Program-made: the position numbers and the translations under genes
Notes under the pieces: model-generated
What the model saw: only the letters and a program-made list of their open reading frames with translations
Databases searched by the model: none
Told to the model about the DNA's origin: nothing
Shown: positions 7,856-58,579 of the stretch, piece by piece
Position numbering within the stretch: position 1 is the first letter of the stretch
How the letters are laid out: the number at the start of each line of letters is the position of its first letter
IMG/VR virus record: IMGVR_UViG_3300018878_000133
Span: 1-64,000 of that record
Direction: 5' to 3' (one strand)
From: a virus
Taxonomy: Duplodnaviria; Heunggongvirae; Uroviricota; Caudoviricetes
Length of the DNA stretch: 64,000 nucleotides

Positions 7856-7857
7856 TT

Positions 7858-45354: not shown

Positions 45355-47352
45355 ATGCAAATTAACGAAACTTTGAAGTCTATTTTAAGAACTCGTCATT
45401 ATTTAGTTATTGATGATAGTGATTTGGCTACAAATAATTCAGCTTATTTAAACGCATATTTGTTAGCTAATTTCGGTATTATTGTAGATAAGCCTAGTTT
45501 TCTTACTAAGACTATGGTTAATCAGATTGACGAGGAATTTCATTTGAATGTTCCTAAGTCTTTTTATGAGAATCCTCAGGATACTAAATATTTTACTTGT
45601 GAAGAGCTTTTGATTGAGCAGATTGTTTCTTATTTTGCATATGGCTCGGACCTTGGTAGAATTGAAATTTTTAAGAAAGATCTTCCTGAATATGTTGTAG
45701 GTGATGAGCTTAAACTTAGAACCTTCTATATTATAAATAATGAAGAAGCTCGTAAAACTCTATACGATATTACGGATGCTTATTGTGCTTACACTCGTCC
45801 GTTTTCGTGTGATGAATTAGCTGAATTTCTTACTTTGTTTACTAATGGTTTTTATGATGGGTCAGAGGAAATTAAGTGTAAAGACAATGTTTTTGCGCTC
45901 CTTCCTACAGATAAAAGATTTGCTAGATTCTTAGATAAAAAAGATATTGTAAAGCTTTCTGTTCAAAGATTTGGAGATAAAGCACAATTCAAGAATTGCA
46001 AAAAGAATCCTTATGCTTGGAAAGAATTACAGATGCATTTCAGTGAAATTGCTTCTTATATTCCTTATGTAAAACATTGTCCTATGTCTAAGAAACAGGC
46101 AAAGTATTTTAATAAAATCGTTTCTCTTGGCAACCTAAAATTACCCAAAGAAACTAATGTGCAGTCCCCTGATAGAGCGGCTCTTAAAATGCTTTCCGAT
46201 GGTGATATTGTTGCTGCGGCTGATATTTATGCTTCTAATGGTTCTATGTTAGAACGTCGCATTAAGATGCTTCTTTCAAGAGCAAATCCTCAGGAAGCTG
46301 TTGAAATTCTTAATATGATTCCTGCATCTAATCCTGTAGTTCTTTATCAGCTTCTTGCAACTCTTTCAGCAGATGATACTGAAGCAAGAACCTTTACTTA
46401 CTTCCATAATAATAAAGTAAAAACTCACAAGGAAACTGACTATGAAGCTAAATGGCGAAAGTCTAGACTTAACGAAAATACACGTAAGTTCCTTGCTTCT
46501 GTTTGTCTTGATAAGATTAAAGAATATTACAAGTCTTTGCCTTCTCTTGGTAAGATTTATGTAGCTGATAATTTCTATAAGTTAGGTATGCCTACTAATA
46601 CTTCTGCTAGCGGTAAGGGTATTGATGTACTTCCTATTGGAAGCCGTATACCTTGTACTGGAAATAATATTAGAACTTTTGTACATTGGAAGAAAGCTTT
46701 TGATATTGATTCTTCTCTTATCGTTGTAGATAAAGATGATAATTTGTCTACTATGGGCTGGTTCAATTATGGTGCAAAATCTTTTGGAAATGATATCCTG
46801 TTCTCCGGTGATATTACTGGTCCTAATGGTGCAGAGTACTTTGATATTAACCTCGACTCTCTTGCCAAAAAAGGTTATAAGTATGTAGTTCAGACTTTCC
46901 ATGGTTACTGCAGTGAACTTAACAGTGGTGAGATTTATGCTGGTTACCAGAATAAAGAAAATCTTAATACTAAAGCTTGGGATCCTAAGAACATTGAGAT
47001 GCAGTTTAAGGTTTATGGTGATTCTCGTGCTTGCGTAGCTTTTGCTATTGACATTCAGAATCGAGAAGTAGTCATTCTTAATCAGATTCTTGACAGTGAT
47101 GATAGAGTAATTAGACCTGAAGGTTTTAAGACTATCGAAAAATACTTACAGGCTAATTATCTTGACGTTAATATTGGTATGATTGCCGAGTGTCGTGGCG
47201 AGCTTGCGGATAATCCTATGGATGCAAACGTTGTATTTGATGATACTTATGCTCCAGTCATTTCTGAAGACTCTGATGATATCGACCCTGTAAAGCAGAC
47301 CATTATCAGAAGTTATGAATTAGAAAAATTAGTAGCTTTTGTTAATAATTAA
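45355..47352 (+). CDS. hypothetical 665-aa protein
   Basis: Long ORF with RBS AAGGAG; no family recognised by eye. First gene after the AT-rich region and immediately upstream of the tRNA island. Confidence 0.5.
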   Translation: MQINETLKSILRTRHYLVIDDSDLATNNSAYLNAYLLANFGIIVDKPSFLTKTMVNQIDEEFHLNVPKSFYENPQDTKYFTCEELLIEQIVSYFAYGSDLGRIEIFKKDLPEYVVGDELKLRTFYIINNEEARKTLYDITDAYCAYTRPFSCDELAEFLTLFTNGFYDGSEEIKCKDNVFALLPTDKRFARFLDKKDIVKLSVQRFGDKAQFKNCKKNPYAWKELQMHFSEIASYIPYVKHCPMSKKQAKYFNKIVSLGNLKLPKETNVQSPDRAALKMLSDGDIVAAADIYASNGSMLERRIKMLLSRANPQEAVEILNMIPASNPVVLYQLLATLSADDTEARTFTYFHNNKVKTHKETDYEAKWRKSRLNENTRKFLASVCLDKIKEYYKSLPSLGKIYVADNFYKLGMPTNTSASGKGIDVLPIGSRIPCTGNNIRTFVHWKKAFDIDSSLIVVDKDDNLSTMGWFNYGAKSFGNDILFSGDITGPNGAEYFDINLDSLAKKGYKYVVQTFHGYCSELNSGEIYAGYQNKENLNTKAWDPKNIEMQFKVYGDSRACVAFAIDIQNREVVILNQILDSDDRVIRPEGFKTIEKYLQANYLDVNIGMIAECRGELADNPMDANVVFDDTYAPVISEDSDDIDPVKQTIIRSYELEKLVAFVNN

Positions 47353-47377
47353 TATATTTTATTGTAATATATTTATA

Positions 47378-47399
47378 GAGACTATGCTTATTTCTTAAC
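47378..47399 (+). repeat. repeat family copy 3 (TAGAGACTATGCTTATTTCTTA)
   Basis: Same core motif, directly upstream of the permuted tRNA-like element. Confidence 0.5.
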
Positions 47400-47408
47400 G
47401 CCTTTTAA

Positions 47409-47480
47409 GCGGGTGGTCGTTGGTTCGAATCCAACCATTTCATCTGTTAGGTGAAATGTAGCTCAGCGGTAGAGCACCTT
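47409..47480 (+). ncRNA. permuted tRNA-like element (T-arm + 3' acceptor strand joined by a 5-nt loop to 5' acceptor strand + D-arm)
   Basis: 'GTTGG-TTCGAAT-CCAAC CATTTCATC tgtta GGTGAAATG TAGC-TCAGCGGTA-GAGC'. GGTGAAA pairs with TTTCATC (one G-U) across a closing loop; no anticodon arm. Confidence 0.4.
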
Positions 47481-47569
47481 TTAGCTAGTCCAAATATTTT
47501 TAATAATTTATTAAATTATTAATTTAATAAGTGCTAAATTTATAAAGAACACATTGTATAATAAAATAC

Positions 47570-48230
47570 GTTAGGTGCCACGAAGCGTTGGTTTAGGCTG
47601 TGATTTAAGGTCAACGCCTAACTCTAGCGAAGAAGCAGCAGTGGTAAATGGAGTGTGATGAACAGCCTTAAATTGGTTTGTAAGTGTTGAAAACCTTTCA
47701 ATGAGATAAGTAATGCTTATGAGATTGATAAAAAACTTAAAAAAATAAATTCGGTTGAACTCCGATATGTCTATGAGGATGCACTGTGGAATAGATGATT
47801 AGTTGGATGCTCCGTAAGGGTCATTACAAGGTCATTTCCTCATAGATGAACCGCCCGCAGGCCATTAACTAGCATAGGCCGTTCCGTTTTATTATTGGCG
47901 GATGATTAAGGACAGTAGGGACAACTTCGCCTGCCGAGAGAATGAAGCTCGCTCAGGTAAAAGCCATAAGCTATCTGGTAACAGAACGTGGAATTAATGA
48001 TGAGAGATAAGTTGTCAGATAATCAGTGGGAAAGATTATCATTTATTCCGTAGTGAGTATAAAGCCATATTAGAATACGCTACAACGTACAACTTTGGAA
48101 ACGGACGCCTGTACAGCGTGACCCAAAGGTAGCAGAGTTTAGGCATAATAGTTTAATGGTAGAACACGGCCGAGTGTTGGGCTGGGTGGCGGTTCAATTC
48201 CGAATGTTGCCGACCAAAAAGAAAAACTCT
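47570..48230 (+). ncRNA. ORF-free GC-elevated structured segment (candidate large ncRNA/intron-like element)
   Basis: ~660 nt with no ORF >=60 aa in any frame. TGTATAAT promoter at 47565; long-range inverted repeats (GCGTTG...CAACGC; TCTATGAGGA...TCCTCATAGA); contains a tRNA-like 5' half (GGCATAATAGTTTAATGGTAGAAC) near its end. Confidence 0.35.
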
Positions 48231-48437
48231 TAAAAGTATTTAGATATGAAAAAGCAAGGTAAACGAATTAGATGCTGGTCACAAGAGTTAATGATAGAAG
48301 AAAGACCGTTGGAAGTGGTTGCAAACGCGAAGCCAACCCTTGCTCCTAAAGGTGAGAGTCCTTTAGCGGAAAAAATATTTTTAAAATTTTTTTAAAACAC
48401 TATAAATTTTAAGTAATTAGATTGTATAATATAACGC

Positions 48438-48458
48438 ATAGAGCCAATGCTTATTTCT
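48438..48458 (+). repeat. repeat family copy 4 (TAGAGCCAATGCTTATTTCT)
   Basis: Preceded by TTGTATAAT (48422-48430) and followed by TTGGCCTTTAT. Confidence 0.5.
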
Positions 48459-48505
48459 GCTGAATAGCGATCATCTTTTAAATGAATTTAGCTTGGCCTT
48501 TATAT

Positions 48506-48644
48506 GCGGGATTGGCGGAATAGGCAGACGCAAGGGACTTGCTTGATGACATAGTGTCTATCTAGTAGGGGCAGTACCTACATCAAGTACCAAAAATCCC
48601 TCGGTAGTGATACCGTATCGGTTCAAGTCCGATATCCCGCACCA
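48506..48644 (+). tRNA. tRNA-Leu-like gene with ~52-nt insertion in the anticodon loop
   Basis: Acceptor GCGGGAT/ATCCCGC + ACCA; Leu-type D-arm TGGCGGAATAGGCAGACGC; long variable hairpin CGGTAGTGATACCG; T-arm ATCGG-TTCAAGT-CCGAT. Anticodon stem AGGGA/TCCCT encloses 59 nt, including a 7-bp hairpin CTTGATG...CATCAAG. Confidence 0.5.
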
Positions 48645-48727
48645 GACCTTTATGTTTTTCAGTTTCTGTTGAATGGGTTAAATAGAAACGACCGTTTTGC
48701 TAGTTTTAAGTGCATAAACTAGTTTAT

Positions 48728-48804
48728 GGACCATTAGCTCAGTTGGTTAGAGCTCCCGGCTCATAACCGGTCGGTCCTAGGTTCGAGTCCTAGATGGTCC
48801 ACCA
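48728..48804 (+). tRNA. tRNA-Met (anticodon CAT)
   Basis: GGACCAT-TA-GCTC-AGTTGGTTA-GAGC...CTCATAA...CTAGG-TTCGAGT-CCTAG-ATGGTCC-A-CCA; clean cloverleaf. Confidence 0.85.
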
Positions 48805-48809
48805 TATAT

Positions 48810-48897
48810 ACGCCATTAGCTCAGCGGTGAGGGCACTGGTCTTATACACCACGGTAATCTTCGGGATTGCGAGGTTCGACTCCTCGATGGCGTACCA
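48810..48897 (+). tRNA. type-II (long variable arm) tRNA with apparent TAT anticodon
   Basis: Acceptor ACGCCAT/ATGGCGT, D-arm GCTC-AGCGGTGA-GGGC, anticodon arm CTGGT-CTTATAC-ACCAC, 17-nt variable hairpin with TTCG loop, T-arm CGAGG-TTCGACT-CCTCG, ACCA. Confidence 0.55.
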
Positions 48898-48965
48898 AAG
48901 AGTGAGAATTTAGAGGTAACGATGTAGCACACTCTTCTATGAAAAAAGCAACCTTCGTTACATAT

Positions 48966-49117
48966 GGCGCGTTGGTCAAGCGGTTAAGACACCGCCCTTT
49001 CGTTAGATTAGCCAAAAGGTAAGGCAGGCCACTAGAGATAGAGGTTATGTGTCAGTTCGAGTCTGACATCTAGCACCAACGGCGGTATCACGGGTTCGAT
49101 TCCCGTACGCGTCACCA
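48966..49117 (+). tRNA. tRNA-Glu-like gene (anticodon-loop CTTTC..AC) interrupted by a 77-nt tRNA-shaped insertion
   Basis: Outer gene GGCGCGT-TG-GTCAAGCGGTTAAGAC-A-CCGCC-[..]-GGCGG-TATCA-CGGGT-TCGATTC-CCGTA-CGCGTCA-CCA. Insert 49012-49088 has its own acceptor GTTAGAT/ATCTAGC, D-arm GCC-AAAAGGTAA-GGC, T-arm GTCAG-TTCGAGT-CTGAC and terminal ACCA. Confidence 0.5.
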
Positions 49118-49270
49118 CAGGGGTTATAATTAGTGGATAAGGTTCCCCAGCAGAAAAATGCCCATTCCATAGGATAGTAACCTTAATTTATAGAAGTAGT
49201 TTATTCATATGGTCACAGTGCCGCGGGCAAGGTTTAAATGAAAATATAAATTAAAATAACTTTTATTTAT

Positions 49271-49347
49271 TGGGCAGTAGCCAAGTCGGTAAGGCAACGG
49301 ACTTTGACTCCGTCATTTCGCTGGTTCGAGTCCAGCCTGCCCAGCCA
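49271..49347 (+). tRNA. tRNA-Gln (anticodon TTG)
   Basis: TGGGCAG-TA-GCC-AAGTCGGTAA-GGC-A-ACGGA-CTTTGAC-TCCGT...GCTGG-TTCGAGT-CCAGC-CTGCCCA-G-CCA. Confidence 0.8.
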
Positions 49348-49354
49348 AAATTGT

Positions 49355-49444
49355 GGAGGAGTACTCAAGCTGGTCGAAGAGGACGCACTGCTAACGCGTT
49401 AGGCCCGAAAGGGTGCGGGAGTTCGAATCTCCCCTCCTCCGCCA
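49355..49444 (+). tRNA. tRNA-Ser (anticodon GCT)
   Basis: GGAGGAG...CTGCTAA loop, long variable arm TAGGCCCGAAAGGGTG, T-arm GGGAG-TTCGAAT-CTCCC, CTCCTCC-G-CCA. Confidence 0.8.
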
Positions 49445-49467
49445 AATTATTTATTTAGAGGTACTTT

Positions 49468-49638
49468 ATGAAGGTAAAGTTACAGTGCCCAGAATGTAAT
49501 CACGAATGGGAATCTAATTATTGGAAATGGATCTTGAAAGCTCCTTTTCATGAATTTGTGTTTTTCCGAATGAAAGACTATAGAAGAACAAAATGTCCTA
49601 AATGTGGTAAAAAGTCTTGGATAGCACGAACTAGATAA
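49468..49638 (+). CDS. small zinc-ribbon protein (56 aa)
   Basis: MKVKLQCPECNHEWESNYWKWILKAPFHEFVFFRMKDYRRTKCPKCGKKSWIARTR; RBS AGAGGT 6 nt upstream. Below the 60-aa cutoff of the ORF track. Confidence 0.45.
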   Translation: MKVKLQCPECNHEWESNYWKWILKAPFHEFVFFRMKDYRRTKCPKCGKKSWIARTR

Positions 49639-49640
49639 TA

Positions 49641-49715
49641 TCTGCGTAATAGTTTAACTGGTAAAACACCTGACCTAATCTGTTGGGAGACACGGTTCGA
49701 GTCCGTAAGCGTAGT
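49641..49715 (+). ncRNA. tRNA-like element with good D- and T-arms but unpaired acceptor ends
   Basis: TAGTTTAACTGGTAAAAC D-arm, CTGAC-CTAATCT-GTTGG, ACGG-TTCGAGT-CCGT; 5' TGCGTAA and 3' AGCGTAG do not pair. Confidence 0.35.
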
Positions 49716-49926
49716 GCTATATAGTATTTTAATAAGTTCCCACTGGGTGGACTGGGGCGGGAATATCGTTGGACGTGAGAATCAGCTAATCGTCACCAGG
49801 GAGTAGAGTAGCCGTGCCCCTGTATTGATACTGGTAGTGCTTTATTGATAAAAGATAAACGTATTGTTAAAGGATGCTACACTGGTAATCTGGTGAACAA
49901 TGTAAGTAGTCCACGGTGAATTTTAT

Positions 49927-50000
49927 AGGTCGTTGGTGTAACGGTAGCATGACTGGCTCCAACCCAGTTGGTCAGGGTTCAAATCCTTGGCGGCCTGCCA
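49927..50000 (+). tRNA. tRNA-Trp (anticodon CCA)
   Basis: AGGTCGT/GCGGCCT acceptor (2 G-U), ACTGG-CTCCAAC-CCAGT, CAGGG-TTCAAAT-CCTTG, G-CCA. Confidence 0.75.
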
Positions 50001-50346
50001 TTAATATAATCTTTCTGAGGCGGCAGAGTACACTTAAGAGACGAAGCAATGCCAAAGGGCCCCCGAACTGTGGTGGAAGAAGTAAAGGCTGAAAAAATGA
50101 TCGGTACCACGAGAGATTCCCGCTGACTTGTGTTACAGTGGTGAGACTGAACGCCGACCTTCACAAGAGGTACCTAACGGGTTAGTAAGCAAGAATCGGG
50201 TCCAGGATGAGGAGTGGCTACGCAGACCAACTTAGTAATTTATCATACCATGCACGTCCCCGTATGGAGAGTGCTAAATACATGGTCGTAAGTGAAAATA
50301 GTGTCTAGGCGTAGAGTAAGAAAGCTTATATTATTTTTTAACTATA

Positions 50347-50420
50347 TATGCGGAGATAGTTTAATTGGATAGAACGCCGGCCTTTTGGTCGGAAGTATAG
50401 GTTCAAATCCTACAACCGTA
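50347..50420 (+). ncRNA. tRNA-like element with 6-nt 'anticodon' loop and unpaired acceptor
   Basis: GCGGAGA-TA-GTTT-AATTGGATA-GAAC-G-CCGGC-CTTTTG-GTCGG...ATAGG-TTCAAAT-CCTAC-AACCGTA; 5'/3' ends not complementary. Confidence 0.35.
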
Positions 50421-50736
50421 ACATAAGGACATCCTTCCTGATATTTAAAAATCACACAAATGGATCGAAGCTTAACGTAATCGGAGCGTACGGTGTTAGT
50501 CACACAAATCTTAAACGTATGACTGGTTTCTATGAAGGGTAAAGAGATAAAGGTTTCCCTTAATCTGGACCGACCAGAGTAGATGTGATACTACATAAAC
50601 AAAAGCCTAACCTGATTTGATTTATGTCAGTCAAGGGGTCGACTCAACTGCAGAACGAGTTACTCATAAATCTTTTTCTTTATAAAATAAATTCTTAAAT
50701 AAATTCTTGATGCTCTGCTGCGACATAAAGATGTTT

Positions 50737-50760
50737 TGTACTGTATAATATTAGTACAGT
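50737..50760 (+). promoter_or_regulatory. extended -10 promoter (TGTATAAT) embedded in a palindrome
   Basis: GTACTG-TATAATAT-TAGTACAG: inverted repeat flanking the -10 element, ~45 nt upstream of the 50803 ATG. Confidence 0.5.
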
Positions 50761-50802
50761 CAATAAAATTCTAATATCTTTATGTATCGAAGGGAGTAAA
50801 TA

Positions 50803-51567
50803 ATGAGTATTATTTTTAAGATGCTGAAGTATCTGAAAAACTACAGTAATCTTATAAAAACGTGCACAATTATTGCACTTGTGATTATAGTAGCTATACA
50901 AGCTATTAGTTTTACTAGTCACAGATCTTCATATAAAGAAGAAGTATCGGTATTACAAACAGAACTTGATTCTTTAAGAAAACAAAATGAAGAGTTAGAA
51001 ACAAAAGTGTCTGAGCAAGAAGAGACACTTGTTGAGAATGAGAAAGTCCTTCTTGACAAGGACGCACAAATCCAAGAGCTTAAAAAAGAATTACAGGAAA
51101 CTAAGAAGGTCGTTTCACAACAGAAGCAGATAGTTTCAAATTCTTTTAAGGCTGATGGTAATTATAACCAGGCTACTAAGGTATGGAAATCATTAAAAGC
51201 TTTAGGTCTTAATGATTACGTGTGTGCAGGTATCATGGGTAATATTATGGCAGAAGTTGGTGGTCAAACGCTTGATATTTCAAGATGGCCTCAGTATAGT
51301 CAAAAAACTTATTATGGTATTTGTCAGTGGGCTGGCAGTAGGAAACAAAGACTTCTAAATGATTTTGGCACAACACTTGAAGACCAGATAAGGTTTTTAT
51401 CTGTTGAATTGTTTGAAGTAATTCCGAAAGGCAATTCTTTCTATAATATGCAAGATGAAAAAGAAGCAGCATTGTATTTTGCAAAATATTATGAGAGATG
51501 TGGGTCTGGATCTTATGGCGTGAGACAACAAAATGCTACAAAAGCATTACAGTATTTCGTGAAGTAA
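50803..51567 (+). CDS. membrane-anchored coiled-coil protein with phage tail-lysozyme-like domain
   Basis: N-terminal TM helix (CTIIALVIIVAIQAI), Glu/Lys/Leu coiled coil, then 'CAGIMGNIMAEVGGQ...YGICQWAGSRKQ' paralogous to the domain in the 40592 ORF; RBS AAGGGAG. Confidence 0.6.
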   Translation: MSIIFKMLKYLKNYSNLIKTCTIIALVIIVAIQAISFTSHRSSYKEEVSVLQTELDSLRKQNEELETKVSEQEETLVENEKVLLDKDAQIQELKKELQETKKVVSQQKQIVSNSFKADGNYNQATKVWKSLKALGLNDYVCAGIMGNIMAEVGGQTLDISRWPQYSQKTYYGICQWAGSRKQRLLNDFGTTLEDQIRFLSVELFEVIPKGNSFYNMQDEKEAALYFAKYYERCGSGSYGVRQQNATKALQYFVK

Positions 51568-51964
51568 GAAAAAGACAGATATGTTTAACAAGTATTAAAA
51601 ATAGTAAAACATATTTAAGAATGAGTGTCAAGCTAAGAATTTAATTTATAAGAATATTATAGCCAGCTATCTATGAGTTGGCTATATTACATAAATTAAT
51701 TTACAGAAAAAATAAGATTTTTATAAAATATTTAAATTTTTTACTGTATAATATTACATGGTAATTTTTACCATTGTTTTGTGAATAGCTTTATTAATCA
51801 TATGCATTCCCCTTTCAATGATACATATGATACAAAGCAACAAAGTCCAAACGGTGAAAGCCCGACAAGACTTGAGAGAAAGAGCTTGGCAATTTTTAAA
51901 ATTCTAATTTAGATTATACGCTAAATTAGATATAGAATAAAAATAATTTAAGGAGATATTAGCT

Positions 51965-52082
51965 ATGAAAAAGTCAGTTAATTTTAATTATAATTCACTA
52001 ATTAAAACAGCTGGCGGAGCTATGCCTAAATTTGATTATTCAAGACCACCAGAGTGGCGTCATTGGTTATTCAGTGAGTAAA
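51965..52082 (+). CDS. small hypothetical protein (38 aa)
   Basis: RBS AAGGAG; terminated by the hairpin at 52101. Confidence 0.3.
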
Positions 52083-52100
52083 AATACTCGATAATCTAGT

Positions 52101-52141: not shown

Positions 52142-52212
52142 TGCTTAAAATATTTATAAAATTTGTTAAAATATATAAATTCGTATCGTATAATAAATAT
52201 GTAATTAAATAT

Positions 52213-52290
52213 GAAGTGAAAAGGGACTCATAAGGCTGACAAAAAGTGTAGGCACTGAGGTTAGTTCGACTCTAACTCACTTCCACAAGG
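52213..52290 (+). ncRNA. D-arm-less tRNA-like element
   Basis: Acceptor GAAGTGA/TCACTTC, T-arm GTTAG-TTCGACT-CTAAC, internal 'CTCATAA' (Met-anticodon-loop-like) but no D-arm or anticodon stem. Confidence 0.3.
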
Positions 52291-52468
52291 TTAAGAGATA
52301 AGCCAAGATGTTTTTGCAAGAACGTCAAAATCTCCTGAGAGACGCGAAACTCCGAAAGTACAACACACTACAATGTATGGACGAAAAAGCCTTCAATGGT
52401 ATTCTGCAAGAAGTAAAATACAGAATCAGACTTATTCATTAGTGTGATGTAGATAAGTCATTTAATAT

Positions 52469-52551
52469 GCGGGCGTGGTGGAATGGCAGACACGATAGAT
52501 TTAGGATCTATTGCCAAAAGCGTGCAGGTTCAAGTCCTGTCGCCCGCACCA
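52469..52551 (+). tRNA. tRNA-Leu (anticodon TAG)
   Basis: GCGGGCG...ATAGA-TTTAGGA-TCTAT, variable arm TGCCAAAAGCGT, GCAGG-TTCAAGT-CCTGT-CGCCCGC-A-CCA. Confidence 0.8.
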
Positions 52552-52726
52552 AATGGTACCATTAACCGAAAGTCCAGACCGTTAAAGGAGTCGGCGAACG
52601 GGAAAGATATAATAATAAATCAAACTCCCGCCTGGCACGCGGACGGAATCTTTCTAGAAAGTCAAGGCCTCATGAACCTTGTGTCCGCAACCAAAAACAA
52701 TGCGGTATAGTTACCGCTTTATATAT

Positions 52727-52802
52727 GCGCCATTAGCTCAGTAGGAAGAGCAAAGCACTTTTAATGCTTAGGTCCCGCGTTCGAGCCGCGGATGGCGCAC
52801 CA
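52727..52802 (+). tRNA. tRNA-Lys (anticodon TTT)
   Basis: GCGCCAT-TA-GCTC-AGTAGGAA-GAGC-A-AAGCA-CTTTTAA-TGCTT-AGGTC-CCGCG-TTCGAGC-CGCGG-ATGGCGC-A-CCA. Confidence 0.85.
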
Positions 52803-52812
52803 AACCTAATAT

Positions 52813-52910
52813 CACGATATAGCTTATGTGGTAAAGCATCCGAATCCCAGGAAAAAGACCAAGATTGATTTCTTGAAGATAAGTAGGTTCAAGTCCTGCT
52901 GTCGTGTCCA
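52813..52910 (+). ncRNA. over-long tRNA-like element (~97 nt) without a canonical anticodon arm
   Basis: Acceptor CACGATA/TGTCGTG + T-CCA, D-arm GCTT-ATGTGGT-AAGC, T-arm GTAGG-TTCAAGT-CCTGC. The 44-nt central region forms CAAGA-TTGATT-TCTTG instead of a 5+7+5 anticodon arm. Confidence 0.35.
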
Positions 52911-53240
52911 AGAGGTTGAGCCCCTCTGTACAAGGCTACCACGTGTTCCTACGAAAGTGGAGAGTTTTGAAAGTGATTTATCTATAAAACTTTCCCCCTT
53001 ATAGTTCTTACTGCTTGTTCATCTAAGTTTGGGGTCAATAACTTAATCTAAAGTGTAAGTAGCGGAATTAATTTACTTCCGAAAATAGGATAAGGAAACC
53101 GGTCCTGTAAATTAATTTTTTAGATGAGTATACAAGAAGTCAAAGTAAGGGACCGTAATCTCTACTGATTAACCTTAGTATACATGTGGGTTATACAGTT
53201 TCGTTGGTGCAACTCCAACCTCATCTGTTTTATTTTATAT

Positions 53241-53326
53241 GGAAAGATATACCGTAAGTGGTAGCGGGGCAGACTGTAAATCTGTTGCCTCAGGCTCGGG
53301 TGGTTCGACTCCATCTCTTTCCACCA
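53241..53326 (+). tRNA. tRNA-Tyr (anticodon GTA)
   Basis: GGAAAGA...GCAGA-CTGTAAA-TCTGT, long variable arm, GGTGG-TTCGACT-CCATC-TCTTTCC-A-CCA. Confidence 0.75.
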
Positions 53327-53434
53327 CGTTGCCGTTTGTAGCAAATAGTCGTTGGGTCAGAGGTAGTAATCAGCCGGCTTAGATTATTATCGTAACGAGA
53401 TTCGCGGTTGAGGGACCTTAACTTCGCCAAAAAT

Positions 53435-53510
53435 CTAGGTGTAATTCAGTTGGTAGAATGCTTGATTTGGGATCAAGATGCCGCAGGTTCGAGTCCTGTC
53501 ACTTAGACCA
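53435..53510 (+). tRNA. tRNA-Pro (anticodon TGG)
   Basis: CTAGGTG-TA-ATTC-AGTTGGTA-GAAT-G-CTTGA-TTTGGGA-TCAAG...GCAGG-TTCGAGT-CCTGT-CACTTAG-A-CCA. Confidence 0.8.
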
Positions 53511-53773
53511 GAAGGGCAGAGAGCAAATGTCCGCCAGCCCTAGTGCTTAAATGAAAGTAATTACTAAGTAAATCTTGCTGCGCATATAGATTGAAAACGT
53601 TATTAGTAGTTGAAAGCAGGTCAAGAGAGGCGAGATGTGTGGTTCTAGGGAATCCTTAACCTATTTATATGTACAGTGCCTACGAGTCAGTAAAGAAGCC
53701 GCAATTAGTGGTAGCCCAGTGTGTGGAGTGACTTTTAGCTGTGAGAGCTATCGGGGTCAACACTGTATAACAT

Positions 53774-53850
53774 GCAGCACTGGTGTTTAATGGCTAGCAT
53801 CTCTGCCTTCCAAGCAGATGGTACGAGTTCGAGTCTCGTGTGTTGCTCCA
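53774..53850 (+). tRNA. tRNA-Gly (anticodon TCC)
   Basis: GCAGCAC...TCTGC-CTTCCAA-GCAGA...ACGAG-TTCGAGT-CTCGT-GTGTTGC-T-CCA. Confidence 0.8.
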
Positions 53851-54081
53851 CTTGTAGGTAGCTCCTACTGATTTGAGCGGTTTGCTTGCCCTCAAAAAGA
53901 ATGAAAATGACATAACAGAATAGGTTTTAGTGACGTAATCAGCTGTAATGACGTGCTACTGGCATTATGCGAGACCTTAAAAATTTAACGGTTCGACCGT
54001 TAAGGAAACTACGGTAGTCTGGTATGAAAGGCTATGAACCTGGATGGAATTTATTCTATTATGTAAAAGTATTATTTATAC

Positions 54082-54168
54082 GCACTTGTGGCGAAATTGG
54101 CAAACGCGCTATCTTGAGGGGGTAGTGATCGAAAGGTCTTGTGGGTTCGAGTCCCACCAGGTGCACCA
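54082..54168 (+). tRNA. tRNA-Leu (anticodon GAG)
   Basis: GCACTTG-TG-GCG-AAATTGGCAAA-CGC-G-CTATC-TTGAGGG-GGTAG, variable arm TGATCGAAAGGTCT, GTGGG-TTCGAGT-CCCAC-CAGGTGC-A-CCA. Confidence 0.75.
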
Positions 54169-54202
54169 TAATTTATACTAAAGAAACAATGGAGAATTAA
54201 AA

Positions 54203-54535
54203 ATGGCTATTAAGTATATTACTATTCCAGAAAAGAAAATGACTGTAGGTATTTTGGAAAATACAGAATTTGATGCAGTTCTTGCTATTCAAAAGAAATT
54301 AGAAGGTACTTCACTTGGTTGTACTTGGACTAGCTACTTAATGCCAACAAGTTTTAAGTCTTCTACTGTATGTCATCCTGATGATGAGTTCGATGTTGAG
54401 GTTGGTAAACAGGTAGTTAAAGATAAACTATTGAAAAACTACTATAAGAGTCTCGATAAGAAGTTTAATCAGTTTGAGCAGGATGTTAAAAAGCTCTATG
54501 ATAACTTATTTGTAGACGAAAAGTCGGAGCTTTAA
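54203..54535 (+). CDS. hypothetical protein
   Basis: 110-aa ORF between tRNAs; RBS GGAG 8 nt upstream. Confidence 0.45.
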   Translation: MAIKYITIPEKKMTVGILENTEFDAVLAIQKKLEGTSLGCTWTSYLMPTSFKSSTVCHPDDEFDVEVGKQVVKDKLLKNYYKSLDKKFNQFEQDVKKLYDNLFVDEKSEL

Positions 54536-54647
54536 AATACATAAACCTACTATTGTATGGGTGGTAAATAGCGGTAAGTATATATCGACATAGCCGGTTG
54601 AAAGTATACCGGATATACCAAATAGGTGAGAAGCCTTTTAAATATAT

Positions 54648-54736
54648 GGAGAGGTACCGAAGTGGTTATAACGGAACGGTCTTGAAAACCGTCGACCCGA
54701 AAGGGTCCGTGGGTTCGAATCCCACCCTCTCCGCCA
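54648..54736 (+). tRNA. tRNA-Ser (anticodon TGA)
   Basis: GGAGAGG-TA-CCG-AAGTGGTTATAA-CGG-A-ACGGT-CTTGAAA-ACCGT, variable arm CGACCCGAAAGGGTCCG, TGGG-TTCGAAT-CCCA-CCTCTCC-G-CCA. Confidence 0.85.
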
Positions 54737-54762
54737 CGATTAAATTTAAGGGAGTTGTTTTT

Positions 54763-54888
54763 ATGACTAGAGACGCACAGTATTTTGAAAATCGTATTGC
54801 ACTTTTGTCAGGTCGTGATCGAGATAATAACAGCATTATTAAAAAGCTTCAGAGACAGCTTCGTAAAGAGTTAGCGAAAAATAAATAA
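54763..54888 (+). CDS. small basic protein (41 aa)
   Basis: MTRDAQYFENRIALLSGRDRDNNSIIKKLQRQLRKELAKNK; AAGGGAG RBS 8 nt upstream. The 5' part of track ORF 54598..54888 is actually tRNA-Ser. Confidence 0.35.
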   Translation: MTRDAQYFENRIALLSGRDRDNNSIIKKLQRQLRKELAKNK

Positions 54889-54904
54889 TTTAGTTTATTT
54901 TATT

Positions 54905-54916
54905 AGCTAAATTATA
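54905..54916 (+). promoter_or_regulatory. AGCTAAATTATA (one-mismatch copy of the TGCTAAATTATA motif)
   Basis: 11/12 identity to the late-gene motif; ~70 nt upstream of tRNA-Asn. Confidence 0.3.
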
Positions 54917-54986
54917 TTGCAGCATAAAACAATGTCAATGAAGTTTTAGACAACCGGTGCTTGCACTGCTTGTATTTTTGTAATTG

Positions 54987-55062
54987 ATTTTATATTCCTC
55001 GTTAGTCCAGTAGGTAGAACGGCGGACTGTTAATCCGTATGTCGGTGGTTCGAGTCCACCAC
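54987..55062 (+). tRNA. tRNA-Asn (anticodon GTT)
   Basis: TCCTCGT-TA-GTCC-AGTAGGTA-GAAC-G-GCGGA-CTGTTAA-TCCGT-ATGTC-GGTGG-TTCGAGT-CCACC-ACGAGGA-G-CCA. Confidence 0.85.
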
Positions 55063-55630
55063 GAGGAGCCAGGTGGGTTTCGTAGAGTTACCGTTGAATA
55101 ACTATGTGCTTGTCGTTTTAAGAAACGAGTGGGTATAAAGCCCCACAAATATCAAATAGTAAGGGCACATGCGAGCTATGAAACCAGAAGTTAAGTAGTG
55201 AAGGAAGCATGGGTGTGGCTGGTTACCGCTTTATCAAAAATCATAGTGTTAACTATGTGAGGTAAAGATGTCTATGTGGTGATATCTACTGTGAACTGTT
55301 GTGCGAGTTCACCTATTTGATAGGGCTGGTTGAAAGACCCTGGTCCATCGAGTAAGGGAACATATCCCTTAACAAAATCCTTAATGGTCATTGTGCTGAC
55401 AATGTGGTAATCTGAAACATAGAATTTTGGTGTAAAGACTAAAATGTTTGGGCAAACGATAAATGCTCCCAAATTTGCTTATTAAGGAATAAGATAGTTG
55501 GCAGACAACGATAAAATCAGTTATAGCCTGTACCCTTGAGAAACTCGTATCAGGTAATTTATATTACTGTGGATAAGCAGGCAAGTAGTGAAATAAAAGG
55601 GTAAGAGAATAAACTACATTATAAAATATA
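55063..55630 (+). ncRNA. ORF-free GC-elevated segment (candidate structured RNA)
   Basis: ~570 nt between tRNA-Asn and tRNA-Met-like. No plus-strand ORF >=60 aa; only a 66-aa minus-strand ORF of doubtful reality. Many G/C-rich local hairpins (e.g. GGGTATAAAGCCCCAC). Confidence 0.3.
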
Positions 55631-55631
55631 T

Positions 55632-55706
55632 CGCGGGGTAGAGCAGAGGTAGCTCACTGTCCTCATAAGTCAGGTGTCGAAGGTTCGAATCCTTCCCCCG
55701 CCTCCA
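55632..55706 (+). tRNA. tRNA-Met-like (anticodon CAT) with C1xC72 and one anticodon-stem mismatch
   Basis: CGCGGGG-TA-GAGC-AGAGGTA-GCTC-A-CTGTC-CTCATAA-GTCAG-GTGTC-GAAGG-TTCGAAT-CCTTC-CCCCGCC-T-CCA. Confidence 0.6.
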
Positions 55707-55850
55707 AAGGTTCGCTTGTACCTTGCCAACACAAGTACGCACGGCTCAGCGGTAAATGAGCGTAACGGCAGTTCGCAGGAAGTTATGCGAACTAAGCGTT
55801 GGTACTACAGCAATGTGATACAAAGCATCGGCAATGCACTGTAGCTATAT

Positions 55851-55936
55851 GGCAAATTGGTGTAAGGTAGCATAAGACAGAATGCCCTATCAACGGGATT
55901 GGATTGTCAGGAACTAGTTCGAGTCTAGTATTTGTC
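55851..55936 (+). tRNA. tRNA-like gene with ~16-nt insertion in the anticodon loop
   Basis: Acceptor GGCAAAT/ATTTGTC (no CCA), T-arm ACTAG-TTCGAGT-CTAGT; anticodon stem GACAG/TTGTC encloses a 23-nt loop containing the mini-hairpin GCCC-TATCAAC-GGG. Confidence 0.4.
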
Positions 55937-56168
55937 TTTTAAGCTTCTTTGTTATAGCATTAATGCGCATTATCTATGCAATCCAAGGCTACGGTAATCG
56001 ACCTATAACAGAAGACAAATTGATGCATCAATCGTTTCACCAAGGTGTGAGCGGGTCAACATTCCAAGAGTAAGAACTTTGGTTGAGGAATGAGAGGTTT
56101 AATATAGATAGGATGAACAGTTAGCAACGCTTGAGGTAACCTTAAAAAACTCAGCCATGCTACCATAT

Positions 56169-56313
56169 GGCTCCGTAGTTCAGATGGTTAGAACGCCTGC
56201 CTGTGCTTTATTAGTTTAATAGTAAAACACTCTTATAAAGAGATGCTAGTGCAAGACTAGTATAAGGCTCCACACGCAGGAGGTCGTCGGTTCGATCCCG
56301 ATCGGAGTCGCCA
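56169..56313 (+). tRNA. tRNA (anticodon-loop remnants CTGTG..AC or CT..CACAC: His/Val-like) interrupted by a 68-nt tRNA-shaped insertion
   Basis: Outer gene GGCTCCG-TA-GTTC-AGATGGTTA-GAAC-G-CCTGC-[75-nt loop]-GCAGG-AGGTC-GTCGG-TTCGATC-CCGAT-CGGAGTC-G-CCA. Insert carries acceptor-like CTTTAT/ATAAGG, D-arm-like GTTT-AATAGTA-AAAC and T-arm-like CTAGT-GCAAG-ACTAG. Confidence 0.5.
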
Positions 56314-56522
56314 AAGGTCTACTGTTAGGTATTTTCATACGACCTTATACAAATAAACATTTAGAAAATATGCGGGAGCTTAGAGGTACGGTAGACTTAT
56401 CTACGAAGCGTTTTGACCCGGTTAAAACTCGAAACGAATCGTGTTTATAAGAAGCAATCATGAGCTCTTTTTAATCATGGTGTAGGCGAGGGTTGAGACC
56501 TGCATAACAGTCCCTCTTATAT

Positions 56523-56595
56523 GCTGGTTTAGCTCAGTTGGTAGAGCAGCTCACTTGTAATGAGCAGGTCGGGGGTTCAAGTCCGTCAACCAGCT
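56523..56595 (+). tRNA. tRNA-Thr (anticodon TGT), no encoded CCA
   Basis: GCTGGTT-TA-GCTC-AGTTGGTA-GAGC-A-GCTCA-CTTGTAA-TGAGC-AGGTC-GGGGG-TTCAAGT-CCGTC-AACCAGC-T. Confidence 0.7.
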
Positions 56596-56665
56596 GACTC
56601 ACAATGGACATACCTTCACGTGGTGTGAGTTGTTAATTAAACTGAATTGTCCAATAAATAAGTAA

Positions 56666-56705
56666 CCTAGTTAGTAATGCAGCTGCTACTAAGTTACTAA
56701 CTAGG
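56666..56705 (+). promoter_or_regulatory. large imperfect palindrome overlapping RBS/start region of the GIY-YIG gene
   Basis: CCTAGTTAGTAA-tGCAGCTGCtactaag-TTACTAACTAGG; 12-bp perfect arms around the palindromic GCAGCTGC core. Confidence 0.5.
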
Positions 56706-56713
56706 TGATTCTT

Positions 56714-57385
56714 ATGGCTTATATTTATAAAATTACAAATAATCTTAATGGCAAGGCTTACATAGGTCAAACACTTTATTCATTAGAAAAAAGGTTTGCA
56801 GAGCATTTAAAAGACAGCGCTAGAACTGGTCACAGTAAAAGACCTCTGTACAAAGCTATGTTAAAGTATGGTTATTCAGCTTTTACTATAGAAGTTGTTG
56901 AAGAACTAGCTGATGATCCAGAGCTTTTAAATGACCGAGAAATTTATTGGATTACGAAATTTCATACTTTTTGTAAAGATCCGCTTGGTCCTGGTTATAA
57001 CGCTACTTTGGGTGGCGGAAGCAAGATGCTTTATGATAGACGCGCGATTATTCAGTATTTACGTAATAATAATTGTGTTAAGGATGCTGCAGAAGTTTTT
57101 AAGTGCACAAAAGACACAATTATCGATATTGCTAAAGCTGCTAATATTCAAGTTAAGTCTAGCCCGGATTTAGTAAAAGAGCTTTATAGTAAACCAATAA
57201 ATATTTATGATTTAAAAAATAATTTAATTCATAGTGTTACTAATTCTTATGAAGCTGAGCAGTGGATTCGAGATAGTGGTATTTCTGATGCTAAAGGCGG
57301 CGCAATTAGAGCTCACATTCTAGAGGTTTGCAAAGGTAAACGAAAAACTGCTTATGGCTTTATATGGAGATACTTGAAAGATTAA
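56714..57385 (+). CDS. GIY-YIG homing endonuclease (free-standing, seg-like)
   Basis: 'YIYKITNNLNGKAYIGQT...RFAEH' GIY-YIG catalytic motif at the N-terminus and a basic C-terminal DNA-binding region. Track ORF starts at GTG 56705; the ATG at 56714 is preferred. Confidence 0.8.
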   Translation: MAYIYKITNNLNGKAYIGQTLYSLEKRFAEHLKDSARTGHSKRPLYKAMLKYGYSAFTIEVVEELADDPELLNDREIYWITKFHTFCKDPLGPGYNATLGGGSKMLYDRRAIIQYLRNNNCVKDAAEVFKCTKDTIIDIAKAANIQVKSSPDLVKELYSKPINIYDLKNNLIHSVTNSYEAEQWIRDSGISDAKGGAIRAHILEVCKGKRKTAYGFIWRYLKD

Positions 57386-57444
57386 TTTGTTGAATATGAC
57401 TGGCGTTAATGCTTAGGTAGCGAGGCGAAAAGTGATAGCTAAAG

Positions 57445-57497
57445 AACTTGCGGTGTACAGTTTCCTAACCGGCCGAGTCAGTCATATTTATATATGC
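57445..57497 (+). ncRNA. tRNA minihelix-like element (acceptor stem + T-arm only)
   Basis: TGCCCGT-tatggcgttga-GTGGG-TTCGAAT-CCTAC-CGCGGGCA-CC. Confidence 0.3.
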
Positions 57498-57613
57498 CCG
57501 TTATGGCGTTGAGTGGGTTCGAATCCTACCGCGGGCACCGAGTGCTGTTAACAAGCACAAAGATTTGCAAATGTGTTTTAGTTCTGGACGTAATTAACCC
57601 AGGGCTAAGATAT

Positions 57614-57689
57614 GGGCCCATAGCTCAATTGGGAGAGCACTAGTCCTGCAAACTAGAGGTCGCGAGTTCGACCCTCGCTGGGTCCACCA
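57614..57689 (+). tRNA. tRNA-Ala (anticodon TGC)
   Basis: GGGCCCA-TA-GCTC-AATTGGGA-GAGC-A-CTAGT-CCTGCAA-ACTAG-AGGTC-GCGAG-TTCGACC-CTCGC-TGGGTCC-A-CCA. Confidence 0.85.
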
Positions 57690-57738
57690 AAAGGTTTTTA
57701 AATATTTTTTAAAATTAAATTAAAATTTTAAAAAACAT

Positions 57739-57750
57739 ATTGTATAATAT
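57739..57750 (+). promoter_or_regulatory. extended -10 promoter TTGTATAATATA
   Basis: TGn-TATAAT consensus; starts an ORF-free unit that ends at the 58451 terminator. Confidence 0.5.
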
Positions 57751-58450
57751 AATATCAACAATTTGTACCTTGAAAGATAAATATAATTACTAACTCAGTG
57801 CTAAACACAAGACACGCTTCTTGTGCTGAGAATGCAACTAAGCGAAAGCTGAACAATGTGTGATGGTAACATAAGAGGGATACCTCGGAAACCGCGCTAC
57901 TTATATATGCGAGTATATGAGTTAAGGGTAGGACCCGAAACATATGTTGTATGTGCTGATGTTATAGCAAGTAATGGTAGGAAGAGTCTCGTGAGAGTAA
58001 TAGAAAGCTTGGTTAATAGCTGAGCCGAATCCAAGTTAGGGTTTAGTTGGTGACTGTATTACACCTTGGAAATGCCAATAATCTCATTTGTCGTGAACCA
58101 TAGAAATGTGGGTATAAGAGATTCAAGTAACCTCCTAGTAGCCGAAGACAATTAACAAAGAATTAATGCTAGTATATAATTAGGAATACTGATATTAATT
58201 TTTTCTGAATAGACGGTGAGGGGTGCAGGTAATCAATCCTGTCATAGTTTATGTAGTCCAGGGCTTGGCCGTTAACCAAGTACCCAGATTTCGTGGCAAG
58301 AAGTTAGGGGTCGCTCCCCGAAGCTCAGACTTGTCATCTATGTGACCGAATGTACTTGAATATAACAAGTGGTAAGGCGAAGGCCTAGGAATGTATTATA
58401 TTTATCTTTGAATGTATAAGGTGTACCTCCTTTGTTTATTTTGCAAGGAT
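57751..58450 (+). ncRNA. candidate long non-coding RNA (promoter-to-terminator unit without ORF)
   Basis: ~700 nt, GC noticeably higher than flanking DNA, bounded by the TTGTATAAT promoter and a strong intrinsic terminator. No plus-strand ORF >=60 aa. Confidence 0.35.
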
Positions 58451-58492
58451 TTTTTTTAAGAAAGTTACTTAGATATAAGTAACTTTCTTTTT
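58451..58492 (+). terminator. rho-independent terminator
   Basis: AAGAAAGTTACTTA-gata-TAAGTAACTTTCTT perfect 14-bp hairpin followed by T8. Confidence 0.8.
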
Positions 58493-58579
58493 TTTATTGT
58501 ATGATATTATAGTAAAAGTTTATGATCAAGTAATGATGAATTGGAATATCTTTATCGATTATGTATGGGAGAATTTAAA

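Follow-up and report, generated by a model that had tools for sequence, protein, structure and literature searches.

The DNA analysed here, hereafter the window, is a 64,000-nucleotide (nt) stretch of a virus of the Caudoviricetes (positions 1 to 64,000 of IMG/VR virus record IMGVR_UViG_3300018878_000133). At 47352-58540 it carries the RNA island of a ~220-kb phage: ~11.2 kb, ~80% of it non-coding, in which tRNA genes, three of them interrupted by tRNA-like inserts ending in NCCA, are interspersed with small and large non-coding RNAs. Public gene calls on an identical contig place only five genes in this span, encoding proteins of 254, 38, 110, 41 and 223 amino acids (aa) and occupying 2.0 of the 11.2 kb, hence the large non-coding share. 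All five, like every feature of the island described below, lie on the + strand: a 254-aa protein with a phage tail lysozyme domain match (50803-51567), a 38-aa protein (51965-52081), a 110-aa protein of unassigned function (54203-54535), a 41-aa protein (54763-54888) and, also by domain match, a 223-aa GIY-YIG homing endonuclease (56714-57385). The endonuclease gene is free-standing between tRNA-Thr and tRNA-Ala, and its product could contribute to rearrangement of the array. A candidate 56-aa zinc-ribbon open reading frame (ORF) at 49468-49638 (Pfam DUF7836, 27.2 bits) is left uncalled by the public gene caller; counting it raises the coding share of the span from ~18% to ~20%, so that the mostly non-coding ~11-kb island proposed in an earlier note, made from the sequence alone, is borne out.

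Three tRNA genes of the island are interrupted within the anticodon loop. tRNA-Leu(UAA) (48506-48644; ARAGORN intron mode) is split between U34 and A35 by insert 1 (48541-48592, 52 nt), tRNA-Glu(UUC) (48966-49117; ARAGORN intron mode and Rfam) between C36 and A37 by insert 2 (49002-49078, 77 nt), and tRNA-Asp(GUC) (56169-56313; ARAGORN intron mode and Rfam) between U35 and C36 by insert 3 (56205-56272, 68 nt). Boundaries were set by comparison with uninterrupted tRNAs in related phage and metagenome-assembled genome (MAG) loci, which are numbered with the prefix L and amount to ~2.5 Mb of related phage DNA in all. The tRNA-Leu(UAA) genes of L145, L139, L170 and L180 have the loop CUUAAAA and lack the 52 nt present in the window; L180 carries an uninterrupted tRNA-Glu(UUC) at the syntenic place (9357-9431); and the uninterrupted orthologue in L171 has the anticodon loop CUGUCAC, which identifies the interrupted gene of the window as tRNA-Asp(GUC) and not tRNA-His. 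On the basis of the relatives' genes and of insert removal, the ARAGORN calls of SeC(UCA) and His(GUG) were rejected in favour of Glu(UUC) and Asp(GUC). Removing the inserts in silico yields canonical Leu, Glu and Asp tRNAs with 7-nt anticodon loops, whose exons are intact and 87-95% identical to the insert-free orthologues. These are the island's only genes for their anticodons, and the phage's most frequent codons include UUA and those for Asp and Glu (73, 74 and 25 per thousand for the families of the three tRNAs).

All three inserts begin with G, form an acceptor-like helix of 7-8 bp followed directly by NCCA, and stack a T-arm or T-arm-like stem on that helix, while none has a normal anticodon loop. 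Insert 1 consists of a 7-bp acceptor-like helix and a 5-bp T-arm-like stem with the loop GGCAGUA, followed by A-CCA; insert 2 is a cloverleaf with a 7-bp acceptor, a canonical T-arm and an aberrant 8-nt anticodon-like loop, again followed by A-CCA; and insert 3 is an AT-rich, cloverleaf-like unit with a 7-bp acceptor helix, a 3-nt loop on its anticodon-like stem, and U-CCA. Bacterial RNase P needs no more of a substrate than an acceptor helix with a T-stem stacked on it and NCCA behind it, and at the sequence level all three inserts conform to this minihelix rule (7-bp acceptor, 5-bp T-stem, single-stranded NCCA). A homologous insert, with the T-like loop GGCAGYA, interrupts tRNA-Leu(UAA) in L127, but at 32/33; inserts of like design occur in tRNA-Leu(UAA) of L163, also at U34|A35, and in tRNA-Ala of L163; and a helix-plus-NCCA ending is found in 6 of 24 distinct intron predictions from the 2.5 Mb. 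Since insert presence and absence differ between relatives, the array is dynamic, and the inserts are discrete elements that are gained or lost. The rearranging half of a decaying, rearranging array proposed earlier therefore stands; the decaying half does not, the interrupted tRNAs being intact and returning to canonical form on insert removal. No copies of the insert sequences were found elsewhere in the window or in the collected loci, which leaves an origin as a multicopy mobile element unsupported. In the literature, our coverage of which was incomplete, no account of tRNA-like inserts within the anticodon loops of phage tRNAs came to light.

The inserts differ from the tRNA introns described so far. 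The group I intron of bacterial tRNA-Leu(UAA) sits between U34 and A35, and the same tRNA and site are used by the window and L163 inserts. Insert 1, however, measures only 52 nt, has no group I core and no Rfam match, and ends in CCA instead of G; it cannot self-splice as a group I intron. More generally, a P3-P9 core, a length above 200 nt and a terminal G are absent from the three inserts (52, 77 and 68 nt, with CCA ends and no Rfam intron match). Among the related loci, a motif 1-bearing MAG contig (L179 1483-2052, - strand) has a tRNA-Thr in which ARAGORN places 490 extra nt at position 37, and this insert could be a genuine group I intron. Like the protein-spliced tRNA introns of archaea and eukaryotes (PMC4090602), the inserts are short, lie in the anticodon loop and restore a canonical tRNA when removed, but they sit at 34/35, 35/36 and 36/37 and not at 37/38, and the insert is itself tRNA-like with a CCA end. 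Inspection of the folds revealed no bulge-helix-bulge motif at the insert junctions. To our knowledge, no splicing endonuclease is known in bacteria or phages. A further likeness is to MALAT1 mascRNA, a tRNA-like unit cut from a longer RNA by RNase P and RNase Z, and to M. smegmatis YrlA, in which a tRNA-shaped module likewise serves as a processing signal within a larger RNA; in the window, by contrast, the module lies inside the anticodon loop of another tRNA and its CCA is genomically encoded. Anticodon-loop insertions, as claimed earlier, are thus present, though as discrete NCCA-ended tRNA-like units and not as introns of group I or archaeal type.

ARAGORN predicted 18 tRNA genes between 48728 and 57689, all on the + strand, to which its intron mode added four insertion-bearing tRNAs at 48506-48644, 48966-49117, 52813-52910 and 56169-56313; Rfam independently returned 20 tRNA matches at gathering score in the span. 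Sixteen genes are canonical, with a 7-nt anticodon loop and 32-67 bits against the Rfam tRNA model (RF00005, threshold 29). ARAGORN and Rfam both place tRNA-Met(CAU) at 48728-48804, tRNA-Gln(UUG) at 49271-49347, tRNA-Ser(GCU) at 49355-49444, tRNA-Trp(CCA) at 49927-50000, tRNA-Leu(UAG) at 52469-52551, tRNA-Lys(UUU) at 52727-52802, tRNA-Tyr(GUA) at 53241-53326, tRNA-Pro(UGG) at 53435-53510, tRNA-Gly(UCC) at 53774-53850, tRNA-Leu(GAG) at 54082-54168, tRNA-Ser(UGA) at 54648-54736, tRNA-Asn(GUU) at 54996-55071, a second tRNA-Met(CAU) at 55632-55706, tRNA-Thr(UGU) at 56523-56595 and tRNA-Ala(UGC) at 57614-57689. They also agree on a type-II tRNA (anticodon UAU, 5-bp variable arm; 48810-48897), which folds into a well-formed cloverleaf 5 nt after the first tRNA-Met; AUA makes up 18 per thousand of the codons, and for a tRNA of Ile type so long an arm would be unusual. 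All the isotypes that the earlier note had read by hand, including both Met(CAU) genes and the type-II UAU tRNA, were found by ARAGORN.

The aberrant tRNA-shaped elements reproduced as well, and we counted ~12 where eight had been claimed: a permuted element at 47391-47510, the three nested-insert tRNAs, two units termed tRNA-like A and B, two degenerate tRNA-like genes, and T-arm or minihelix elements at 52223-52285, 53198-53230, 55913-55929 and 57496-57540. One degenerate gene (49642-49715; ARAGORN) has a mismatched acceptor stem, lacks CCA and scores 25.4 bits, below the tRNA threshold of 29 bits, as does the 48142-48212 core of tRNA-like A; the other (50349-50422; ARAGORN and Rfam) has a 6-nt anticodon loop. 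The minihelix at 57496-57540 joins an acceptor to a T-arm and ends in ACCG, and extra T-arm-like hairpins outside recognised tRNAs lie at 47419, 49051, 52260, 55913 and 57513. tRNA-like B (52813-52910; Rfam tRNA, 35 bits) has acceptor, D and T arms followed by UCCA, with a 3-bp stem bearing the loop GAAUCCCA and a long extra hairpin in place of the anticodon arm; its homologue in L145 has the identical GAAUCCCA loop on a covarying 3-bp stem. A second aberrant tRNA-like family occurs in relatives (L144 3377-3847, L163 16559-16957, L165 4424-5686 and L173 1958-3222), where a hairpin and then a conserved ACWGCAAUUUU-like sequence replace the anticodon arm; it is unlike the NCCA-ended inserts and absent from the window.

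At the 3' end of the island, 57770-58406 is a full-length textbook ROOL RNA (Rfam RF03087, 286.2 bits against a gathering score of 99.1, covering positions 1-574 of the 574-position model). It starts 80 nt downstream of tRNA-Ala, in a phage context, has its own TTGTATAAT box at 57740, and is followed by a strong terminator, a 14-bp intrinsic-terminator-like hairpin with a T run (58458-58489) that closes the island. ROOL and GOLLD RNAs adjoin phage tRNA islands and form RNA-only cages of unknown function, and tRNAs occur in the GOLLD linker (PMC12286853). The island of the window resembles these (Weinberg et al. 2017; Kretsch et al. 2025, PMC12286853) in placing a full-length ROOL beside a tRNA array, in its low-G+C Firmicutes phage setting, and, as in GOLLD, in a second large RNA whose linker embeds a tRNA-like unit; it differs in spreading 22 tRNA genes over 11 kb, as against 6-12 in 0.8-2.5 kb in relatives. 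Such compact arrays, without inserts, are what we observed in those Thg1-anchored relatives that have arrays, which makes the expansion of this island unusual.

The predicted second large RNA runs for ~830 nt, from motif 1 (described below) to LR2 and from a promoter-like box to an AT-rich tract. LR1 (47679-48128) is a conserved non-coding RNA of ~450 nt, 77-82% identical to L145 and L150, in which invariant blocks alternate with hairpins that differ in sequence and length yet still pair. tRNA-like A follows (48129-48236; tRNA core 48142-48212, then GACCA; tRNA model 24.8 bits against the threshold of 29), enclosed by an invariant 7-bp outer stem, AGAGUUU (48134-48140) with AAACUCU (48224-48230); it is kept in L145, L150, L167 and L180, where its D stem and its anticodon-like stem show compensatory changes. 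LR2 (48237-48400) is a conserved structured segment with the AT-rich tract at its end, kept with compensatory pairs in L145, L150, L180 and L181; a 49-aa ORF within it, the sole ORF of the block, is not conserved. LR1, tRNA-like A and LR2 are syntenic in L145, L150 and L180, and the block, for which three to five homologues were found, is partly conserved in L180, L181 and L167. Full homologues of LR1 numbered only two in all collections scanned, so its fold is provisional; a match in L149 to an 18-nt LR1 pattern was due to chance. Neither LR1 nor LR2 has an Rfam match, and GOLLD (RF01998) gave none at E values up to 10 over 47540-48520; with neither the GOLLD nor the ROOL model matching, identity with GOLLD was rejected. 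The layout, an ~830-nt RNA with an embedded tRNA-like unit, is nevertheless GOLLD-like. Between LR1 and tRNA-like A, L145 (1922-2050, - strand) and L150 (2524-2660, - strand) carry an extra module of ~90 nt with GGUGAAAUUCCCUGGC, which is absent from the window.

Motif 1 (47568-47678) scores 86.8 bits against our own covariance model R1 and comprises a closing helix P1, a helix P2 (UGCYAC/GURGUA) and a variable hairpin, with an invariant 19-nt conserved 3' strand, UAAAUGGAGUnnGAUGAACAGCC. The family was found from a 35-nt match in L015, which gave a 19-nt pattern and thereby 26 viral contigs, and 28 distinct copies were identified in phage contigs. Covariation was seen at four of five pairs in P1 and one of six in P2, and 98% of alignment cells are paired, a share that falls to 20-43% on sliding the 3' partners. 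The window holds one copy and islands elsewhere one to four, often 1-11 nt from the end of a tRNA and in company with ROOL, RAGATH-16/36 and skipping-rope RNAs. Motif 1 itself matched nothing in Rfam. With its paired 5' and 3' ends and an ACGAAG near the 5' end it recalls bacterial Y RNAs, although it reads YACGAAG and not the GNCGAAG of that motif.

Motif 2 (55526-55618) is a pseudoknot of P1, (N)CCUG/CAGG(N'), P2, UACCCUU/AAGGGUA, and P3, ending 14 nt before the second tRNA-Met. An 86-nt match in L015 at first seemed isolated, and most of the 43 loci returned by a first degenerate pattern were chance matches, only L087, L088 and L111 being real; a second pattern then gave 34 viral stretches. 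In 21 distinct aligned copies, two pairs covary in P1 and four in P3, P2 is invariant save for two wobble-compatible changes, and 95.7% of cells are paired, against 33-53% when slid. Most copies are followed within about 10 nt by a tRNA-like 5' start (GUCAGGUGGCG...). Motif 2 matched no Rfam family, those of the hepatitis delta virus (HDV) ribozymes included. Theta ribozymes, which are HDV-like, adjoin phage tRNAs (PMC10879173), and motifs 1 and 2 are similarly compact, conserved and placed a few nt from phage tRNA genes. A theta fold, a nested double pseudoknot of the order P1-P2-P3-P1'-P4-P2' with a catalytic C in J4/2, was rejected for motif 2, however, in that its helix order differs, the 3' strand of P2 lying inside the P3 loop, and no HDV-family model matched in Rfam, which may lack a theta-specific one. 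Large IMG/VR screens have listed 8,495 unnamed RNA candidates (PMC10690425), and motifs 1 and 2 could be among them.

The permuted element at 47391-47510 matches the YrlA family (Rfam RF02553) over model positions 1-114 at 39 bits (E about 1e-5; gathering score 69). Its order is that of the YrlA tRNA-like module, T-arm, hairpin and D-arm (Chen et al. 2014, PMC4201824): a T stem-loop (47419-47435), an acceptor-like connecting hairpin, and a D-arm-like GUAGCUCAGCGGUAGAGCAC at about 47450-47475. RNase P cleaves the YrlA of M. smegmatis, which has an acceptor-like stem of 7 bp, and CCA is added to that RNA (PMC4201824). Bacterial Y RNAs (YrlA/YrlB) share this arm order and are also known in phages. 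We call the element YrlA-like, and not YrlA, since its score is under threshold and no Ro60 gene is detectable beside it, whereas YrlA is encoded within about 4 kb of a Ro60 (TROVE) gene on the same strand; a search for Y RNA/YrlA, proposed earlier, was apt as to the match and fell short as to the family threshold. A Y RNA-Ro60 pair formed with the 665-aa protein encoded just upstream was unsupported, that protein giving no Ro60/TROVE signal. Elsewhere, carriers of the 110-aa island protein encode a 549-aa protein with a faint TROVE (Ro60-like) match (L159 12674-14323, L161 3500-5149). Immediately downstream of two promoter-like boxes, the 21-nt segments at 47375-47395 and 48438-48458 are 90% identical (AUAGAGnCnAUGCUUAUUUCU); one starts the YrlA-like RNA and the other the leader of the interrupted tRNA-Leu, and AUAGAGnCnAUGCUUAUUUCU may be a shared 5' leader element. 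A DUF3800-XI RNA motif (55322-55368; Rfam RF02975) passes its gathering score marginally, with 40.1 against 37.8 bits, and also adjoins a tRNA array in L010; no DUF3800 gene was found among the proteins scanned, in a scan that was not exhaustive.

Putative promoters recur along the island as a repeated family of TTGTATAAT boxes (repeat families D6, D11 and D12), the first at 47554-47562 and others at 48422, 50741, 51744, 52186, 57740 and 58497. Among the spacers, a T-arm element at 52223-52285 is 87% identical to L170 with a covarying T-stem and opens a conserved leader (52223-52451) upstream of tRNA-Leu(UAG), which matches L170, L180 and L150; downstream of tRNA-Pro, 53513-53677 is 77% identical to L142. 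At least five elements, namely motif 1, the LR1/tRNA-like/LR2 block, motif 2, tRNA-like B and the T-arm element, are thus conserved in other phages. The three long, ORF-free stretches with raised G+C that the earlier note had singled out exist (47568-48128, 55072-55631 and 57770-58406; G+C 0.38-0.46, against ~0.33 in coding DNA), but one of them is the 286-bit ROOL, a family already known beside phage tRNA islands, and so they are not all novel. Its larger expectation of many uncharacterised RNAs fared better: standard tRNAs and Rfam families cover only ~23% of the span, leaving most of the extra sequence unexplained, and several pieces of it are conserved, show compensatory base changes and have no Rfam match. 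The claim that the ORF-free DNA is structured holds for such pieces and not span-wide, folding-energy z-scores failing to separate spacers from coding controls; ROOL scored -3.3 and one coding control -3.8, and we therefore discarded this measure as non-discriminating. Detectable homologues elsewhere exist for only ~1.5 kb of the unexplained spacer. Several spacers are 71-87% conserved across phages that have no other detectable spacer match, and spacer G+C (0.38-0.45) exceeds that of coding (~0.33) and promoter-type intergenic DNA (0.12-0.27), which, together with the lack of ORFs, is no more than suggestive.

The inventory of elements was observed, as were their conservation and covariation, the precise limits of the inserts and the relatives' empty sites. 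Building on these, we propose as a reasonably probable explanation that the RNA island has several promoters and that the enzymes which process tRNA ends release its products; we infer the use of the promoters, cleavage by RNase P, the release of spacers as RNAs and all functions. Several + strand transcription units, each beginning at a TTGTATAAT box, would yield long precursors, with tRNAs and tRNA-like minihelices marking the points of cleavage: RNase P would cut at each acceptor helix, and 3' trimming would halt at the encoded CCA. The predicted products would be ~16 ordinary tRNAs, the ROOL RNA, a Y-RNA-like RNA, small stable RNAs (motif 1, motif 2 and tRNA-like B) and the ~830-nt large RNA of GOLLD-like layout (motif 1, LR1, the embedded tRNA-like unit and LR2). 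Because the inserts in the heavily used Leu-UAA, Glu-UUC and Asp-GUC tRNAs resemble ideal RNase P substrates, they are most likely excised from the precursor at their 5' side, at the first G. After this cut the tRNA halves would either be rejoined, making the inserts a new kind of intron, or be left severed, the inserts then disabling their tRNAs or acting as a source of halves. The island's context is a flanking RNA end-repair set of Thg1-like, P-loop kinase-like, metallophosphoesterase and AAA_33-HD genes.

Several observations weigh against this explanation. For about 4.5 kb of spacer, the ~2.5 Mb of DNA from related phages contains no homologue, and the folding energies of unconserved spacers are no more extreme than those of coding controls, so that these may be plain leader or spacer sequence. 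Three sequences underlie the LR1 fold, most of whose helices do not vary and are hence uninformative on structure. The YrlA-like element, at 39 bits, does not reach the gathering score of 69, and Pfam and PDB-sequence searches, the adjacent 665-aa ORF included but not the rest of the 220-kb genome, revealed no Ro60/TROVE gene beside it. Finally, no RNA ligase gene was seen in the 64-kb window, while the interrupted tRNAs, if severed by RNase P, would need rejoining.

How the inserts themselves should be read bears on these alternatives. If they are true introns, RNase P would cut at the 5' side, an RNase Z-type enzyme would cut after the CCA, and an ATP-dependent RNA ligase would join the resulting 3'-OH and 5'-phosphate, kept close by the body of the tRNA, to give functional tRNAs for Leu, Glu and Asp. 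Cleavage right behind an encoded CCA is a property of Thermotoga RNase Z, and nicked anticodon loops are sealed by T4 Rnl1. The precise G...NCCA boundaries, the canonical 7-nt loops left by removal, the intact exons with 87-95% identity to uninterrupted orthologues, and the position of these genes as the island's only ones for very frequent Leu(UAA), Glu and Asp codons all fit such splicing, as do the adjoining RNA-repair genes and a Tpt1 homologue in the insert-bearing relative L163. We nonetheless regard it as possible but unlikely, with the window showing no ligase gene, no enzyme known to cut after CCA in Clostridia, and insert positions (32/33, 34/35, 35/36 and 36/37) varied enough to fit insertion at breaks equally well. 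The broader statement that the inserts are either a new kind of tRNA intron or fossils of RNA-level ligation, and that they are accompanied by three or more RNA classes absent from Rfam (motif 1, motif 2 and the ~830-nt LR1/LR2 RNA, which could be a third cage-type 'ornate' RNA beside ROOL), is likewise one we put forward tentatively, judging it in its entirety improbable.

Alternatively, the inserts may be selfish or accidental and disable their tRNAs, most long spacers being non-functional filler in a fast-rearranging array; a mature CCA-ended tRNA-like RNA might have been ligated into a nuclease-cut anticodon loop and copied back to DNA. Unit boundaries that coincide with mature RNA ends (+1 G to CCA), presence or absence that differs between close relatives, and related inserts at differing positions of one loop across phages would agree with this origin, and the GIY-YIG gene within the island, the compact arrays of relatives, and spacers mostly lacking homologues and unremarkable in folding energy would agree with the filler. 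Yet the interrupted tRNAs show no secondary decay, the identical phage sequence is fixed in at least 16 assemblies, and the insert design recurs in at least three phage lineages; moreover, the raised spacer G+C and the 71-87% conservation of several spacers across phages otherwise without a spacer match are at odds with mere filler, and we find this account distinctly doubtful. That the oddities are artefacts of assembly or annotation of a metagenomic contig is scarcely credible. The window does come from an uncultured phage, and ARAGORN mis-called two interrupted tRNAs (SeC and His for Glu and Asp), but a 220,267-bp ENA contig and fragments of independent assemblies (ENA, JGI and Logan) match the 11.3-kb island at 100% identity, establishing it as real jumbo-phage sequence, and Rfam and ARAGORN are concordant on the tRNAs; the identical independent assemblies effectively refute this possibility.

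For ROOL and GOLLD, the one consistent functional clue is adjacency to phage tRNA islands, and the island analysed here provides a defined co-occurring set, in which ROOL is joined by a Y-RNA-like element, by three or more other conserved RNAs and by RNA-repair genes. Widespread, with dozens of copies in phage contigs and, for motif 1, also in animal-gut MAG contigs, motifs 1 and 2 are of a length that suits direct biochemistry. For the interrupted tRNAs, the 'empty sites' of relatives serve as natural controls. If the inserts were spliced, they would represent a new tRNA maturation route and, were they true introns, the first protein-dependent tRNA splicing in a bacterial virus; if unspliced, they would be a record of how RNA was damaged and repaired as phage tRNAs contended with anticodon nucleases of the host.

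No close relative of the phage was found in the GenBank phage collection. Contigs sharing its non-coding motifs were binned with Clostridia, Christensenellaceae and Eubacteriales and derive from sheep, goat, rabbit, mouse and human gut; the host is probably a gut Clostridia member. Upstream of the island lie tail lysozyme, CHAP, amidase and M23 peptidase genes, the last with three S-layer-homology (SLH) domains (35013-35993), which fits the Clostridia assignment of the related contigs and suggests a host with an S-layer. Directly before the island, 45355-47352 encodes the 665-aa protein, which matched nothing in Pfam or among PDB sequences, gave only a weak PHROG match of unknown function and yielded no relatives from the viral collection. 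Directly downstream, 58541-60767 holds genes that resemble an RNA end-repair set and encode a P-loop AAA_28 protein, a Thg1-like 3'-5' polymerase and a metallophosphoesterase, and a KTI12/AAA_33 kinase fused to an HD domain begins at about 63476 (L151 19274-20218).

With the Thg1-like gene as anchor, 80 loci were gathered, almost none with tRNAs near the gene and with almost no DNA similarity to the island; synteny between the Thg1-like gene and the tRNA island is not kept. The nearest carriers of the identical 110-aa protein are all 100% identical to the island, and thus useless for covariation, and more distant homologues of this protein occur in other contexts. In L163, a Tpt1 RNA 2'-phosphotransferase (7364-7891) and a DUF2828 protein (17341-18897) are encoded near gene-free gaps, and a DUF2828 homologue follows a motif 1 and tRNA-like cluster in L144 (4035-4412).

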